Below the pieces are notes generated by a model. The model did no database searches. It was not told the origin of the DNA and saw only the letters and a list, made by a program, of their open reading frames with translations. Positions 2,602-23,496 of a DNA stretch of 54,610 nucleotides are shown piece after piece (the stretch's first letter is position 1; every line of letters begins with the position of its first letter). Made by a program: the position numbers and the translations under genes. Origin of the DNA: a virus (lineage: Duplodnaviria; Caudoviricetes); IMG/VR virus record IMGVR_UViG_3300011423_000010, positions 1 through 54,610 of that record; one strand, given 5' to 3'.

Positions 2602-2908
2602 CAGCATTGTCTTCATATATAAGAGGTGGGATAAATGGGTGGGGCATTCCCCAAAAACTTCATTCAAAGACTAAAGTTATACCTATATATATAGGTACAA
2701 TTATCTAAATAGGCATTTATTGCATTATTCTTAGTAAATAAGATGAATTATTGAGAATAATGTAATAAATTAAACTTTCTACGGCGAGCACATTAACTTA
2801 TTCGCAATAAAATGGGTAGGAGAAAAGTGTTGAGATACACATCACAACTAATATTTGTCTTATTAAAAGTACAATAAACAATGAAATCATTTAAAATTAT
2901 ATAGCATT

Positions 2909-3163
2909 ATGTCTAGACAATTACTATTAAAGATAAAACAGGAAACTATTGATAAAGAAATAGAATTAGAATTATCTAAAGGGAGAACAATATATAGATT
3001 ATCTGGTAAACCTTATGATATTGATACAATATGTAGGATGAATAAACAACATTTTACTCAAATTGATAATAATCTTGTATCTATAGATAATAATGATTTT
3101 GATGCTTTATCTAGTTGTATGAGAGTACAAAATGTGAAAATGTTTCCTCTTATTAAGGTTTAA
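2909..3163 (+). CDS. Hypothetical early protein
   Basis: ORF with typical ATTATG start. Confidence 0.55.
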   Translation: MSRQLLLKIKQETIDKEIELELSKGRTIYRLSGKPYDIDTICRMNKQHFTQIDNNLVSIDNNDFDALSSCMRVQNVKMFPLIKV

Positions 3164-3247
3164 AAAAAGAAATAGATAGTATGTATATTTTTCCTTTATA
3201 TACATACTATTTCTTAGTGAAATAAAGGAATAACAAACAATTATATT

Positions 3248-3466
3248 ATGGGGAAGACAATTGTAATACCATTGAAAACTATTCATTTAGACAATGTTAA
3301 TAAGATAAGTAGTTTTATTAATATTAGTACTAAGGCTATTGCTTCTTATACATTTAAGAGTAGTCAAGATTCTGTTTATTCTTTAATTATTAATCATAAT
3401 AATAATGTAACTCCTGAGGATTTTATATTTATTGGGAGGATCATTGCTTTAAATGATAAAATATGA
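3248..3466 (+). CDS. Hypothetical early protein
   Basis: ORF with ATTATG start, coupled to next ORF by ATGA. Confidence 0.55.
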   Translation: MGKTIVIPLKTIHLDNVNKISSFINISTKAIASYTFKSSQDSVYSLIINHNNNVTPEDFIFIGRIIALNDKI

Positions 3467-3627
3467 AGAAGTTTATAGTTATTGTACTTATTATCTGGAT
3501 AGGTGGTAGTATATCTAATTGGTTAGGATATCATGCTGGTGCATTATTAGGGTTAATTGGGTATATTGTTACTCTTTTAATGATATTTTTTGTAGGGTGT
3601 GATGATTCATTATCATCAAAGAATTAG
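3463..3627 (+). CDS. Small two-TM membrane protein (54 aa)
   Basis: Manual translation MKKFIVIVLIIWIGG...LLGLIGYIVTLLMIFFVG; below ORF-track cutoff. Confidence 0.5.
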   Translation: MKKFIVIVLIIWIGGSISNWLGYHAGALLGLIGYIVTLLMIFFVGCDDSLSSKN

Positions 3628-3922
3628 AATATATTATTTAGGTGTATATGAGGAATAGTTTAAGTTAGATTATTCCTTTATATACTTATGATAATAGTAT
3701 ATTCATTGGGTTACAAGGATTAAAAAACAAATAACAACAACAAACAAACAAATAAAATAATGGCTAGAAAACATATAAAATTAGGATATTTAGTATGGAG
3801 TACTAATGAGAAACAGATGTCTTGTATTAGAATATTGAATATTGTTCAAAAGTCTGAAAGATTATCTAGTAGAAGATTGAGTAGAAATGTAGTAAAAGTT
3901 GAACCTGAAACTGTATAGCATT

Positions 3923-4177
3923 ATGAAGGAATTAAATGAAATACAGGTAAAGAACTTCCTAAAATTTGCATTAGCATTAATGGATAAACAAAATCAATGG
4001 TTAATAGATGGTAATAATGAAGAGTCTGTTAAAGCAGCTAATAATACTGTTCATGGTATAATGTTATTGTTAAATGATATTATTGGTGTAGAAGAGTTTA
4101 TTAAAACTTATGCTAATACTCCTGATGAAAAGCATTTATTTGCTATTATGTTGGTCTCAAGTAATTTTGTAATTTAA
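3923..4177 (+). CDS. Hypothetical protein, early paralog family A copy 1
   Basis: NEIQ.KN...KQ..WL...A.NT...LLN...V..F...P.E shared with 4183-4425. Confidence 0.65.
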   Translation: MKELNEIQVKNFLKFALALMDKQNQWLIDGNNEESVKAANNTVHGIMLLLNDIIGVEEFIKTYANTPDEKHLFAIMLVSSNFVI

Positions 4178-4182
4178 ATATT

Positions 4183-4425
4183 ATGAATGAAATTCAGAGA
4201 AAGAATATGGTTTGGATGTTGAATAAAACCATTAAGAAACAATATGAATGGTTACATAAAGAGGAAATTACTTCTGCTTTATTAGCTCATAATACTATTG
4301 CTGATATATGTAAATTGTTGAATGGTGAAATAACTGTTGATGCATTTATGTTGTTACCTAAAGCAATACCAGAAGAGAATGAACTCTATGGTATATTATT
4401 ATTTAGTAATAAAGAAATATCATGA
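4183..4425 (+). CDS. Hypothetical protein, early paralog family A copy 2
   Basis: Aligns by eye with 3923-4177. Confidence 0.65.
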   Translation: MNEIQRKNMVWMLNKTIKKQYEWLHKEEITSALLAHNTIADICKLLNGEITVDAFMLLPKAIPEENELYGILLFSNKEIS

Positions 4426-4846
4426 GAGTATTTGTTAGAATATTTGCAATATTAATGATTGGACATATGATAATTGATTATTGTATTAAGTATAATAGTC
4501 GTATTTCATGGCTTATTGTTATGTCAATAATAATATGTCTTGTATTATTGGTTTTATATTTCTCAGAAGAGAATTAAAAATACTTCCTGCATATATAGAT
4601 GATTTTATCGGAAATTTAATTGGTCTATATTATGCAGGTTTGTTTGATTTTTGTGTTGTTTTTTAGGAGTAGTTTAGAGAGTAATTTAGCTGTTACTCTC
4701 TTGCTATTTCGTTTAATGACATAAACAAACAAAAGGATTAAATGGCTGGTCACTCATCGGGTTAGTTAACCATTATTTGTATTTATTGATTATTTATACA
4801 GAGTGGCCAGTACATTTATTATTGTTTTACCTCAAATTATTAAATT

Positions 4847-5256: not shown

Positions 5257-5644
5257 TTAATTGTTTAATTTAATTTATATTATTATGAATTCACTTGAAA
5301 GAATGCGAGATTTTATTGATTGGATGGAAAATAAAATACAAAATGTTCATGCAGCTCAAAAAGAGCCTATGCTTAGAGCATTATTAATTGTTGCTAAAGA
5401 ATAATAACTATGATAAATTCAAAAGGAATATTATTTGTACTATTATCAATAGTAAATAAGTATATGGCTCATATTTGGTAATTCGTGTACACTAAGTCCC
5501 AATGAGAGCCATGTTTAAAAAACTCAATAACCTTGCAAGATGTTGAGCACACCAGTTTCTTATAGTATGGTAATTCTACTAATACAACTAGCGAACTATA
5601 AGTTTTAGGTGTAAAACACAAATAATAATTTAAAATTAAACAAC

Positions 5645-6989: not shown

Positions 6990-7235
6990 ATGAGAAATAT
7001 ATATAGAGTGGTATACTGTCTAAATTCTGACAGTATACCTTTATCATATCCTCATGAACGTTATTATGGTAGTATGAGAGCAGCTGAAGATGCTGTTAAA
7101 ATATTTGTAGATCTTCATCATTCACTACCTAATAAATTATTGGCTGAACGTGGTATTGCTATTGATATAACATCAGGAGAGCTCTTAATTAAAATAGAAC
7201 CTCTTAGATTTAATTCAAAAATCTATAGTCTATGA
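6990..7235 (+). CDS. Hypothetical protein
   Basis: 81-aa ORF. Confidence 0.5.
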   Translation: MRNIYRVVYCLNSDSIPLSYPHERYYGSMRAAEDAVKIFVDLHHSLPNKLLAERGIAIDITSGELLIKIEPLRFNSKIYSL

Positions 7236-20302: not shown

Positions 20303-20770
20303 GTGAGAACGAACGAAGAAATTTTAGAAAGACATGCATCTGAAGATTCATTTGATATTTTCAATGCACAAAGAACAGCTCTTTTATGTATGTTACCATA
20401 TGAAATAGCTAAACCTCATCTGGACCCAGTCTATGTACAAAAACATGAAGATGGTACTCTGCAAGATGATGAGAAATGGAAGGAAGGTTGGGATGTTAAA
20501 GACCAAATCATTGATTATCTTCCTCATATGTATAAAGCTATGAGAGCTCATAATGATTTTGAAATCAGTGTGGGTGTATGTTATCTTAGAATCTGGGTAT
20601 GGACAGAAGACTCAAGCTTCTATGATGTAATTGACCATATGTTTGAAAGCGAAATGCTTGATGCAGGATTACTAACTAATGCCATAGCTAAACATTATGG
20701 ATATGAGGATTCTATAACTGACATTCCTTTTGAGGAAATAAATACTGACGAAGATGAAACTACTACTTAG
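20303..20770 (+). CDS. Acidic hypothetical protein
   Basis: 155-aa ORF, GTG start after A-rich leader. Confidence 0.65.
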   Translation: MRTNEEILERHASEDSFDIFNAQRTALLCMLPYEIAKPHLDPVYVQKHEDGTLQDDEKWKEGWDVKDQIIDYLPHMYKAMRAHNDFEISVGVCYLRIWVWTEDSSFYDVIDHMFESEMLDAGLLTNAIAKHYGYEDSITDIPFEEINTDEDETTT

Positions 20771-20954
20771 AATAATCGTAAGTGTATTATCATTATTTGG
20801 AGCTGTGCTCTCAGTAATGAATTTGTTTAAGGCACTCAATAAAGGAAATCTCTTTGTGAGTGCTGTTTCAATAACCTGTTTAATTATAATTGTTTATTTT
20901 ACTATAAAAACGAAACTGTTCACTGAATTTAAATCTAAAAAAGAAGAAGAATGA
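20754..20954 (+). CDS. Two-TM membrane protein
   Basis: Hydrophobic helices. Confidence 0.55.
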   Translation: MKLLLRIIVSVLSLFGAVLSVMNLFKALNKGNLFVSAVSITCLIIIVYFTIKTKLFTEFKSKKEEE

Positions 20955-21193
20955 TGATCATTTATTTAATTATTACGTTTTTAGTTACCTATTTTGCTAT
21001 TAAAAAGTGGAGTGATGAGATGTTAAAGAAGGTTAAAACTTCTAAATATCGTGAATGGGCAGATACACCAGAATTCTGGTATATAGTTCTTACAATAGTA
21101 TTTTGGCCTGTAGTTGTCCCAGGCTATTTTCTATGGAAATTAATGGACAAAATAACAAACAAAATTAAAAAAAAAGATGAAGAAAGTCTTTAG
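20951..21193 (+). CDS. Two-TM membrane protein
   Basis: Hydrophobic helices, FWP motif. Confidence 0.55.
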   Translation: MMIIYLIITFLVTYFAIKKWSDEMLKKVKTSKYREWADTPEFWYIVLTIVFWPVVVPGYFLWKLMDKITNKIKKKDEESL

Positions 21194-22010
21194 TATTGCC
21201 TTATTCGGAGCATTGTTAGCAATGTCTTCATGTACAACAGCTGATTCGGGAGAAGTAGCATTGATTGTAGATCAAATTGGAAACTCGAAAGGTATCCCAA
21301 ATGTCCAGATGGAATCAGGATTCATTATGTATTTTCCACCAACCCAGGATGTGTTTACCTATCCTACAAGCGTGCAACATGTTGAGTGGCTCAAAGAAAC
21401 AACTTCACAAATTGATGTTACCTCAGCAGATGGAGCATCCTTTGGGCTAGATGTAGCCCTAAATGTAAGATTGGTAAGAGATAGAGCTGCAGAACTATTC
21501 ATTAAGTACAGAGTTCCAATGGAAGATTTAATAAAAACTCGAATTAGAGCCCTGGTTAGAAAGGAACTTGTTGATAATTCCGTTAACTTTGCATCAGATA
21601 GTTTGTTGCAACATAGAAATATCTATGAAACAAATGTATCAAGAACATTAGCTGTAAGGCTAGAGAAAGAAGGTTTTCTTCTTGATAACTTATCTATTTT
21701 GAAGATGGACTTACCAGAATCATATAGAAATGCTATCAATAAGAAGATTAGGGTTATACAGGAAACAGCAACTATTAGAAGCCAAACTGAACAGGCTACT
21801 CAAGAAGCTCTAAGAAAGGTAGCAGTAGCTAAAGGTAATTATGAAGCTGCTCAATATGATGCTAAAACTAAAGAAGTTATGTCAGCACCTAAAATGTTAG
21901 AACTATATAGAGCTGAAACAGAAAGAATTTGGGCTGAAAAAGGTACAAGTCCTTATGGAGCAAACAATGTATTTGGTACTTCTTCAGGATTAATTCTGAA
22001 TAGGTCATAA
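21177..22010 (+). CDS. SPFH/band-7/prohibitin family protein
   Basis: N-terminal anchor/lipobox MSSC; YPTSVQ, TSADG..LDV, LPESYRNAINKK, AVAKG.YEA coiled tail. Confidence 0.88.
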   Translation: MKKVFSIALFGALLAMSSCTTADSGEVALIVDQIGNSKGIPNVQMESGFIMYFPPTQDVFTYPTSVQHVEWLKETTSQIDVTSADGASFGLDVALNVRLVRDRAAELFIKYRVPMEDLIKTRIRALVRKELVDNSVNFASDSLLQHRNIYETNVSRTLAVRLEKEGFLLDNLSILKMDLPESYRNAINKKIRVIQETATIRSQTEQATQEALRKVAVAKGNYEAAQYDAKTKEVMSAPKMLELYRAETERIWAEKGTSPYGANNVFGTSSGLILNRS

Positions 22011-22025
22011 AATTAAAATCTAAAC

Positions 22026-22230
22026 CCTGATAGAAACTATATAGTAATATATAGAATGGATATAGCTGTATGAGATATGCTATTATATACCATTGGGAGC
22101 TCTCAGCAGTGATTCGAAAAGCTATGCAGTTTTAAAACTCTTATAGAGCCTTACAAACTAGAATCGCGTGACCTTACCTCTTATACAAGCTCCGTAACTG
22201 ATAACTCGGTAAGCTATAAGAAAAGGTGCT
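22026..22230 (+). ncRNA. Candidate structured RNA (multi-stem, pseudoknot), family unknown
   Basis: Stems GTGATTC(22109)/GAATCGC(22161), ACCTT..TCTTATA/TATAAGA.AAGGT, and GGAGCT(22096)/AGCTCC(22188) crossing the latter; G-U pairs favour the plus strand. Confidence 0.5.
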
Positions 22231-22255
22231 AATTTTTAATTTAAAAATAAATGTT

Positions 22256-22657
22256 ATGAAAAAGTTACTTTTGGGGCTTATGCTCCTGGTCTGTTTGTCT
22301 GGTTTCAGTCAAACTAAAATTCTTGGAGTGTACAACACTGGTAATTCTACTGGTGCTGAAGCTATTTTTTCTTTTAAACCTTTAGAAGAACGTGTGTATT
22401 CTTTAGGAGCAGGTATTACTGGAGGTAATAACTTCAAAACTGAGTATGGTATCCTTACTCAGGATGTTACCAAAAACTTCAGTATTGGTGGAAAAGTAGG
22501 TGGATGGAACCCATGTGGTCATGGGCAAAATAATACCTATCTGTACTATGGAACAGTTGCTTATCTTCAATTTACAGGAAAAGATAAAGGCTGGGTATTA
22601 GGTACAGAATATGATAATCTTAAACATTTTAGTTTTGGTTTAGGTTATAAATTTTAA
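22256..22657 (+). CDS. Small outer-membrane beta-barrel protein
   Basis: Sec signal ending GFS-Q; alternating Gly/aromatic strands; C-terminal FSFGLGYKF beta-signal. Confidence 0.7.
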   Translation: MKKLLLGLMLLVCLSGFSQTKILGVYNTGNSTGAEAIFSFKPLEERVYSLGAGITGGNNFKTEYGILTQDVTKNFSIGGKVGGWNPCGHGQNNTYLYYGTVAYLQFTGKDKGWVLGTEYDNLKHFSFGLGYKF

Positions 22658-22676
22658 GCATAGATTACAAAGTTTT

Positions 22677-22710
22677 ATACCCACTCCTGAAAAGGGGTGG
22701 GTATTTTTTT
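22677..22710 (+). terminator. Intrinsic terminator
   Basis: ATACCCACTCCT-GAAA-AGGGGTGGGTAT then T6. Confidence 0.85.
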
Positions 22711-22740
22711 AATATAAATGGAACACAAAATCGAACAAAA

Positions 22741-23496
22741 ATGAAAAAATTAGAAATTAAAACATTGGGAGCTAACTCAAAGAAAGGATTTTCTTTATTA
22801 GCAGGCATAAACAGACCTGTAGTGCCTAGTCATGTTACACGAATGGCTAAATCAATTGAACGTATGGGTGTTATTAGACCTGTAGTGGTGGCTAAAGCTG
22901 ACTTTTTAGGAGTTAAAGATGCTTTGTATATAATAGATGGTCAACATTTATTTCATGCTCTATTGAGACTTGGAATTGATATTCCTTATACCGAAATAAA
23001 TGTTTATGATCATATAGACTTAGTGGATAATATCTCCCTGCTAAATAGTTCTTCTAAATCATGGTCCATGAGAGATTATATACAAGCTTGGTCATCAATT
23101 AGTGAAGACTATGATAAATTGCAGAATTATTTCAATATTTATGACATTGAATTACAGCAATTGGCAGAAATCTTAATGGAGAACAGTTCTAATGCTAGAG
23201 CTGGAGGTAATAGTAATATAACCAGAGTGATTAAAAAAGGTCAATTTTCAATTGAAGATGAAGATTTGGGTGTATCATTGTTAAATAAGGCTACTGATGC
23301 TATGAAAGTAATTCCTAGATTAGATAGATCTTCTAATAGAATGTTTATTTCTAGTTATGTAAATTTTGTTACAACAGAAAAAGGTTATAATCATTCTGAG
23401 TTCTTGAAAGCTTTGATAGCTAATAAAGATAAATTTAAGCTATCAACACAAGACCCAGATGAGTTTAAAAAATTATTTAAAATCATTTTAAAATGA
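22741..23496 (+). CDS. ParB/Srx-like N-terminal domain protein (DGQH type)
   Basis: NRPV..SHV..MAKSI...G..RPVVV...YIIDGQHL..AL; LNSSSKSWS..DY. Confidence 0.75.
   Translation: MKKLEIKTLGANSKKGFSLLAGINRPVVPSHVTRMAKSIERMGVIRPVVVAKADFLGVKDALYIIDGQHLFHALLRLGIDIPYTEINVYDHIDLVDNISLLNSSSKSWSMRDYIQAWSSISEDYDKLQNYFNIYDIELQQLAEILMENSSNARAGGNSNITRVIKKGQFSIEDEDLGVSLLNKATDAMKVIPRLDRSSNRMFISSYVNFVTTEKGYNHSEFLKALIANKDKFKLSTQDPDEFKKLFKIILK

Follow-up and report, generated by a model that had tools for sequence, protein, structure and literature searches.

Introduction

Few large folded RNAs are known to combine invariant junctions with pseudoknots, and those that do have mostly proved to act as ribozymes, cores of ribonucleoproteins or self-assembling cages. 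The stable RNAs C and D (species 1 and 2) of phage T4 are small, lie within a transfer RNA (tRNA) gene cluster and are freed by tRNA-processing enzymes. GOLLD and ROOL, according to the part of Kretsch et al. 2025 (PMC12286853) covered here, are large, ornate, pseudoknotted RNAs of phages and prophages, of unknown function and often located near tRNA islands. In the cultured crAss-like Cellulophaga phage phi14:2, the parts of a preprint covered here (Drobysheva et al., bioRxiv 10.1101/2020.03.07.982082) report a long non-coding RNA (lncRNA) at the g004-g005 junction, which is abundant, appears early, persists through infection and is transcribed rightward above most genes; these parts give none of its structure, family or distribution. 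Here we analysed a 54.6-kb (54,610-nt) stretch of an uncultured virus (IMG/VR record IMGVR_UViG_3300011423_000010, estimated completeness 46%), hereafter the window, and in particular its 245-nt gap (22011-22255) between an SPFH/Band 7 gene and the gene of a 133-aa signal-peptide protein. We consider it likely, with a probability of roughly 70%, that positions 22015-22234 (plus strand) of this gap are a reduced, approximately 220-nt member of a widespread family of structured phage RNAs that also includes the g004-g005 lncRNA of phi14:2.

The phi14:2 RNA is approximately 450 nt long and has the helices P1, P2 and P6, all of which are missing from the window copy. Like GOLLD and ROOL, the family combines a conserved core with variable parts, and just as GOLLD sometimes embeds tRNAs, some of its members have strings resembling tRNA T-arms, whereas the family's RNAs are shorter (210-517 nt versus about 580-800 nt) and show a strong tie to genes for transfer-messenger RNA (tmRNA). 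Membership of GOLLD and ROOL, which we take to be Rfam RF01998 and RF03087, was considered and rejected, as their models, scanned against the window, the related viral loci L003 and L016 (L numbers denote loci in viral contigs throughout) and phi14:2, gave no match either at the gathering score or with E up to 10 (for phi14:2, up to 1). The T4 RNAs C and D, likened here from their general description, are also stable phage RNAs of unknown function among tRNA genes, but much shorter. By analogy, GOLLD, ROOL and the T4 RNAs would be the closest analogues in kind, and the family appears to be a member of none of them.

Results

Identification of the RNA in the gap

The covariance model R1, which represents the 3' domain of the family, has a single clear match in the window: 22085-22234 aligns over the full model (positions 1-149) with 60.5 bits and E 1.3e-16. 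The runner-up reaches 11 bits, and an nhmmer search found the same domain with E 1.6e-11. The R1 alignment shows the junction GAGUUCUCAGCAAG, stem B, CGUGACC, stem C and the GGGUGCUAA end, and the 3' domain, from its junction through stems B and C to the GGUGCUAA end, is a clear family match. For the 5' side, the model R2 (P3-P4-P5-junction) has its top match in the window at 22029-22109 with 14.7 bits, while the same reduced module reaches 26.9 bits (E 2.8e-4) in L074 and 24.2 bits (E 1.2e-3) in L016. R2 aligns 22037-22054 on P3, with an identical AGUAAU loop, and AUGG/CCAU on the outer part of P4; the two 5' hairpins of the window copy correspond to the family helices P3 and P4. Since R2 matches there, we take 22029-22109 to be family sequence rather than foreign filler, and read the RNA as a reduced form consisting of P3, one long hairpin for P4/P5/P6, the junction, P8 and P9. 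P1, P2 and P6 are regarded as absent, because the profile of the whole 5' domain matches nothing in the window, and AAACATTGA is absent on both of its strands. The full family has the following order of elements.

P1 hairpin with conserved loop CUAAACAUUGAA, at the 5' end of full members
P2, a variable helix, followed by the junction AUAAAGAUA, 3' of P1
P3 hairpin with loop AGUAAU, after the junction AUAAAGAUA
P4 helix enclosing the P5 hairpin (loop CUUGAGAAA) and the variable P6 hairpin, after P3
invariant junction AAAUGAGUUCUCAGCAAG, after P4
P8, a variable hairpin (the GUGAUUC/GAAUCGC stem in the window), then CGUG, after the invariant junction
P9 hairpin ACCCUACUCUUAU/AUAAGAAAGAGGGU with variable tip, after CGUG
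GCUAAA, at the 3' end of full members

The corresponding parts of the window, all on the plus strand, are as follows.

21177-22010: SPFH/Band 7 gene (Pfam Band_7, E 6.7e-19), directly upstream of the RNA
22015-22036: start of the shared reduced 5' module, AAAAUCUAAACCCUGAUAGAAA, where homology to L016, L074 and two RNA-library contigs starts
22037-22054: hairpin 1, family P3, loop AGUAAU (R2 alignment)
22056-22093: hairpin 2, one long hairpin replacing the P4/P5/P6 three-way junction (R2, AUGG/CCAU being outer P4)
22094-22108: core junction UGGGAGCUCUCAGCA, with one U-to-C change and one A missing against the consensus AAAUGAGUUCUCAGCAAG (R1 alignment, 17-mer scan)
22109-22167: stem B (P8), GUGAUUC/GAAUCGC around a variable insert common to L051 and L171 (R1, covariation)
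22171-22227: stem C (P9), ACCUU/AAGGU and UCUUAUA/UAUAAGA (R1, covariation)
22188-22194 with 22207-22215: local extension helix within stem C, a module common to L221, L193, L214, L167 and L171
22228-22234: conserved 3' end GCUAAUU (family: GGGUGCUAAA; R1), a few bases after which a tRNA or tmRNA gene begins elsewhere
22256-22657: gene of the 133-aa signal-peptide protein, outside the conserved context of the RNA family
22677-22704: strong intrinsic terminator, 3' of the downstream gene

Every helix of the window copy stays paired through changes on both sides when compared with its relatives. A first-pass annotation, made from the sequence of the window alone, had drawn a structured, plus-strand RNA, most of whose helices hold, and the sequences it quoted were all found in place. 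Its hairpin CUAUAU-AGUAAU-AUAUAG (22037-22054) reads CUAUAC/GUAUAG in L074, with the closing pair changed on both sides, and the inner AGC/GCU helix of its AUGG...CCAU stem (22056-22093) reads AGU/ACU in the same locus. The GUGAUUC/GAAUCGC stem (22109-22115 with 22161-22167) becomes GUAGUUC/GAACUAC in L051, two pairs being changed on both sides in a module otherwise 89% identical. The 3' stem ACCUU..UCUUAUA/UAUAAGA..AAGGU (22171-22227) corresponds to ACCCU/AGGGU in the family, where the differing pair is CG in 44, UA in 5 and UG in 2 of 51 sequences. The strand assignment also holds, as R1 matches in the plus orientation that the family shares with tRNA and tmRNA genes. In its composition the window copy is a mosaic, with P8 common to L051 and L171 and the P9 tip common to L221, L193, L214, L167 and L171.

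Two long-range pairings of the first-pass annotation fared differently. The proposed pseudoknot between GGAGCU (22096-22101) and AGCUCC (22188-22193) is unsupported, because AGCUCC sits in a local covarying helix with 22207-22215, read as AGCCCCG/CGGUAGGCU in L171 and L214 (U-A to C-G) and as AGCUCCA/UGGUAAGCU in L221 (G-C to A-U). GGAGCU aligns to the invariant family junction UGAGUU, and the P9 tips of other members hold no complement to the junction. The alternative pairing CUUACC/GGUAAG is likewise unsupported, because GGUAAG is part of the same local extension helix of P9. A different contact is suggested by the family, in which the P5 loop UGAGAA is complementary to the junction UUCUCA, with both sides invariant in the sample, pointing to a putative pseudoknot. 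In the window, the hairpin 2 loop UGUAUGAGAUAU keeps UGAGA (22071-22075) and, in a comparison of three close copies, resembles the P5 loop AUGUGAGAUAU of L250, to which it may correspond; this UGAGA could pair with UCUCA (22101-22105) as a tertiary contact.

From the P1/P2 region only CUAAAC..CCUGAUAG is left, at 22020-22033. On comparison by eye with P1 and P2, these first two family hairpins may survive in collapsed form as 22015-22036, in which the conserved loop CUAAACAUUGAA is not intact. The unit of about 200 nt drawn at first pass does not stand on its own: it is a shortened version (approximately 220 nt) of a larger RNA.

The suggestion of an uncatalogued family stands. Rfam 15 gave no match at the gathering score in the whole window, noise only in the gap in a permissive scan (E up to 10) of 21900-22800, and no family match to this RNA in full-length members at E up to 10 (L003, L016) or up to 1 (phi14:2). 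ARAGORN called no tRNA or tmRNA gene in the whole window, and a DNA search of 21177-22740 against GenBank phages returned no match. Literature searches, supplementary lists such as the 10,006 candidate RNAs of PMC10690425 lying outside their scope, gave no account of the structure or distribution of the family.

Discovery, size and covariation of the family

A search with the SPFH protein gave 20 related viral loci, of which only L016 matches the gap by blastn, and then only over 22017-22108 (95.7% identity). L003 is nearly identical to L016, without an endonuclease gene and with an uninterrupted non-coding stretch instead, of which L014 and L017 carry a 72%-identical version; in the alignment, 22100-22235 of the window is homologous to the 3' part of the L003/L016-type RNA, with compensatory differences. 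A first search pattern, TCTCAGCA..CGTGACC with 15 fixed bases, was too loose and was rejected (120 stretches, of which 8 were family members by blastn). These eight added members exposed the invariant 17-mer AAUGAGUUCUCAGCAAG, which was found in at least 120 stretches of viral contigs. Among the matches listed, 91 loci have both end motifs and 76 are unique and full-length (210-517 nt), a count that leaves out stretches lacking an end motif or broken by contig ends and to which all fractions of 76 below refer. At least five matches (L177, L200, L218, L229, L231) are chance occurrences in coding sequence without the other motifs. Prokaryote genomes totalling 596 billion bases contained the 17-mer in 45 stretches, where by our own arithmetic approximately 70 are expected by chance; five of them have other family motifs and two have these partly, all on contigs of metagenome-assembled genomes, which give no basis for host assignment. 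Considering that the prokaryote count is about that of chance, with five to seven real cases, this is essentially a phage RNA.

Covariation was analysed in two alignments. A3 covers the 5' domain (37 of 40 qualifying sequences, 5' domain of at most 215 nt), and A2, from which R1 was also built, covers the 3' domain (51 of 55 qualifying among the 76, 3' domain of at most 175 nt); R2 was built from 41 sequences, and the whole 5' domain was searched with an nhmmer profile. In the 5' domain 96.4% of the cells are paired and 24 of 31 pairs are changed on both sides, against 34-48% paired cells in slid-partner controls. The 3' domain has 90.2% paired cells, with 13 of 21 pairs changed on both sides and 35-47% in the slid-partner controls. 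None of 500 shuffles reached as high a value in either domain. Overall, five 5' helices and the 3' stems covary, P3 being paired in 100% of cells with both-side changes in all five of its pairs. The first-pass annotation had proposed covariation among homologous RNAs as a check, and helices covary in both domains. As a separate observation, the tRNA T-arm-like strings GGUUUGAAUCC and GGUUCAAAUCC occur in peripheral stems of L051 (about 4090-4150), L224 (about 6990-7020) and L210.

The member in phage phi14:2

Phage phi14:2 has a full member of approximately 450 nt at about 2911-3363 (R1 110.3 bits, R2 73.2 bits) on the rightward strand, between g004 (2194-2904) and the former g005 (3590-3910), in the place of the first abundant lncRNA. 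Because a cultured and genetically approachable crAss-like phage has a member, in a region reported to be among its most abundant transcripts, the function of the family is directly testable. There is also a use for annotation, as the GenBank record of phi14:2 had tiny 'hypothetical proteins' called over this RNA: in KC821624.1 (3106-3431, minus strand) gp007-gp009, of 34-39 aa, run across the RNA gene, and in 2020 they were dropped from RefSeq.

A second abundant 'long non-coding RNA' of phi14:2 corresponds to the g005-g006 gap in the covered parts of the preprint (10.1101/2020.03.07.982082). In this gap, at about 4031-4502 (plus strand) of NC_021806.1, we found an unannotated tmRNA gene, placed by ARAGORN at 4031-4500 with the tag GSSVQKLAMVA* and having an Rfam score of 46 bits against a cut-off of 47.

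Genomic context

A same-strand tRNA or tmRNA gene lies within 1.5 kb in 29 of the 76 members by ARAGORN. tmRNA genes are found near 12 of the 76, and in eight of these the tmRNA starts at most 100 nt downstream; both counts are an undercount, because ARAGORN missed the L003 tmRNA that Rfam found. At several loci a tRNA starts a few bases past GGGUGCUAA or ends just before P1. No protein neighbour is universal: the commonest downstream protein cluster is shared by 17 of the 76 loci (median distance 508 nt), an SPFH gene is upstream of the RNA in nine of 76, and the three commonest neighbour proteins tested belong to no Pfam family. In three loci (L242 and two others) a ParB-like 251-aa gene, homologous to 22741-23496 of the window, follows approximately 130 nt after the RNA, and the signal-peptide gene and terminator of the window look like an insertion between the RNA and the ParB-like gene.

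The downstream 133-aa protein had been labelled an outer-membrane beta-barrel. It has no Pfam match, and its single-sequence fold is poor (pLDDT 37.5); what agrees with that label is limited to its signal peptide and the C-terminal ...GLGYKF. From the SPFH gene to 22677 there is no convincing terminator, the sole other match (22273-22286) being a weak 5-pair stem inside the downstream open reading frame.

Homing endonuclease and the reduced module

Conserved phage genes are known to be split or entered by free-standing homing endonuclease genes, as in the intronless homing of phage T4. In L016, an HNH homing endonuclease gene (HNH_3, E 4.1e-9) lies inside the long non-coding stretch between an SPFH gene and a tmRNA gene; the module homologous to 22017-22108 of the window directly follows its stop codon, and upstream of the endonuclease gene the old 5' domain is broken off after P3. 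In L074, an endonuclease cassette sits inside the 17-mer with the 9-nt repeat GAGUUCUCA on both flanks; a complete old 5' domain lies upstream of it, and the reduced module and the 3' domain lie downstream. As in T4-type intronless homing, the HNH_3 gene of both loci is placed exactly in the most conserved stretch of the gene it enters and flanking sequence travels with it; here, by contrast, the target is a non-coding RNA gene and the cassette appears to bring a replacement 5' module. We propose that the HNH endonuclease would target the conserved junction of resident RNA copies and carry this short module with it, and that the window would descend from an endonuclease-bearing allele whose endonuclease gene and old 5' half have since been lost.

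A scan with a pattern of the second hairpin found only two other viral contigs, L074 and L016. Furthermore, two metatranscriptome runs from two studies have contigs matching 22015-22106 with two mismatches and 22015-22108 with one, in other flanks, which brings the contexts of the reduced 5' module to four besides the window. In one of these contigs the module comes after a different conserved RNA module and runs on into consensus P8; given these other flanks, the reduced module is not strictly tied to the endonuclease gene. The RNA-library contigs cover 22015-22163 and short unrelated pieces, missing cover elsewhere being uninformative, and X23 matches in short pieces only, at less than 95% identity. 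As evidence of expression they are a weak hint, with DNA carry-over possible.

Discussion

Across the phages studied, the family has a conserved, covarying and pseudoknot-prone fold, is abundant and persistent in one phage, and is independent of any one downstream gene. It has more than 100 members in uncultured phages, strong covariation, a tie to tmRNA and tRNA genes, and a homing endonuclease that probably targets it. Of the three roles suggested at first pass, a trans-acting phage RNA fits best. We propose that the window RNA would be co-transcribed with the SPFH gene and the downstream gene, because no convincing terminator separates the two, and would act in trans as a stable folded RNA via its conserved unpaired loops and junction; where members adjoin tRNA or tmRNA genes, tRNA-processing enzymes might release them from polycistronic transcripts. 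Its partner is probably to be sought in translation or ribosome rescue, as the family is tied to tmRNA and tRNA genes. Additionally, the naturally shortened window copy shows which parts can be lost and helps to define a minimal construct.

Several observations weigh against placing the window copy in this family as an RNA of this kind. Its R1 score of 60.5 bits is far under the 109-113 bits of full members and also below the 74-80 bits of endonuclease-linked copies, and its junction has two departures from a 17-mer shared unchanged by more than 100 members. With E 0.27 over 54.6 kb and both strands, the R2 match is insignificant for the window as a whole, and the nhmmer profile of the whole 5' domain has no match there (best E 3.8). 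Among its three DNA copies the reduced module is 89-96% identical, and compensatory changes within it are therefore few. The expression evidence comes from phi14:2, a different phage than that of the window, and the translation link comes from gene neighbourhood alone. Finally, although the minimum free energy fold of the gap gives back most of the hairpins of the first-pass annotation, its energy is no better than that of shuffled sequence (z -1.40 on the plus strand, 24 of 200 shuffles folding as well; -1.00 on the minus strand). The first-pass annotation had named this comparison as grounds for refutation, and by energy alone a structured RNA would fail it; since energy does not beat the shuffles, the case for structure lies with the homologues.

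The explanation that ranks next after our own is that the window copy is a decaying remnant: an endonuclease cassette would have invaded a full-length RNA gene, a later deletion would have taken the endonuclease gene and the 5' half, and what is left would be non-functional debris, read through between two genes. Identity between 22008-22108 and the stretch just past the HNH stop codon is 93-96% for L016 and 89% for L074, the window has neither the 5' domain nor an endonuclease gene (tblastn best E 4.1), and the upstream RNA copy of L016 is itself truncated after P3. The altered junction and a model score about half that of full members would also be expected of debris. Nevertheless, no helix of the window copy has lost its pairing, and compensatory changes distinguish it from the nearest modules; the AGUAAU loop of the family and a UGAGA loop are retained, and the module recurs not only in the window but also in L016, L074 and two RNA-library contigs, five contexts in all, at least one of them without an endonuclease gene in view. 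We regard decay as unlikely, though it deserves to be kept in mind, and continue to favour a reduced member of the family that would act in trans.

A bolder version of the trans-acting role would make the family a new functional class of phage RNA, catalytic or the core of a particle, that works with phage tmRNA and tRNAs on host translation or rescue, with the window as its minimal core (P3, P4, a pseudoknotted junction, P8 and P9) and the endonuclease spreading this core by replacing 5' halves. We offer this as speculation and hold it to be rather doubtful.

Less probable still is a ribozyme that processes itself or the precursors of tRNA and tmRNA, or else a degenerate intron resembling group I with the endonuclease gene inside. 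In favour of this, the unpaired nucleotides of the junction are invariant, the peripheral stems are hypervariable and a pseudoknot is likely, an architecture that is typical of ribozymes; the RNA ends adjoin tRNA and tmRNA genes, and in two phages the HNH gene is inside the RNA, with a U before the 9-nt repeat and a G after it in L074, which by eye is compatible with group I splice-site rules. However, scans of the window, L016 and L003 at E up to 10 and of phi14:2 at E up to 1 matched no Rfam model of a ribozyme or intron, and the helix order, with two hairpins inside one closing pairing, is unlike the P7-P3-P8 layout of group I. Moreover, there is no interrupted host gene, and only approximately 200 nt of non-coding sequence flank the endonuclease gene in total. 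A group I intron in the window was rejected, as the SPFH gene ends where its homologues end, no Rfam intron model matched and the helix order does not fit.

The riboswitch-like leader of the downstream gene that the first-pass annotation had considered is very improbable: the RNA ends approximately 21 nt before the ATG with no convincing terminator between, and full-length members in L014 and L017 end approximately 25 nt before a signal-peptide protein gene, but we infer that it is not a switch for this gene, because downstream neighbours across the 76 unique members are tmRNA, tRNA or many unrelated protein genes, no expression platform was found (neither terminator/anti-terminator nor sequestration of a ribosome-binding site) and no Rfam riboswitch matched, and the downstream gene of the window has no relatives in viral contigs.

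Additional observations

Further conserved elements accompany the RNA. A conserved non-coding module of approximately 90 nt (AGUGGUCCUACAUCCAC...GGUCUCUGAUGUUAGGGAAC...GAGUUGCAA...AAACUCUCAAAC), which has no Rfam match, lies just upstream of the RNA in L003 (3850-3935) and L014 (4042-4128), stands alone after a tRNA in L066 (3710-3801), and also forms the loose end of an RNA-library contig at position 22015 of the window. Another conserved non-coding stretch, CAGCAGUUGCUUGA...GAAUGUUAAGUCCUUUCCAC.CAGAGAAGGAGUUGAGUACUUA, lies directly after the tmRNA or tRNA and is followed by a terminator in L003 (4664-4800) and L066 (about 3560-3700); this may be another small RNA.

The Rfam DUF805b motif was found in L003 and L016 at 2769-2801 (plus strand; 38.3 and 36.7 bits, cut-off 35.6), upstream of a gene for a 60-aa membrane protein. 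The window has a homologue of that small open reading frame at 20754-20954, with no Rfam match reported there. In L016, an Rfam tRNA match covers 111 nt (5324-5434, plus strand) just after the tmRNA; it was not called by ARAGORN and may be a tRNA with a long insertion.

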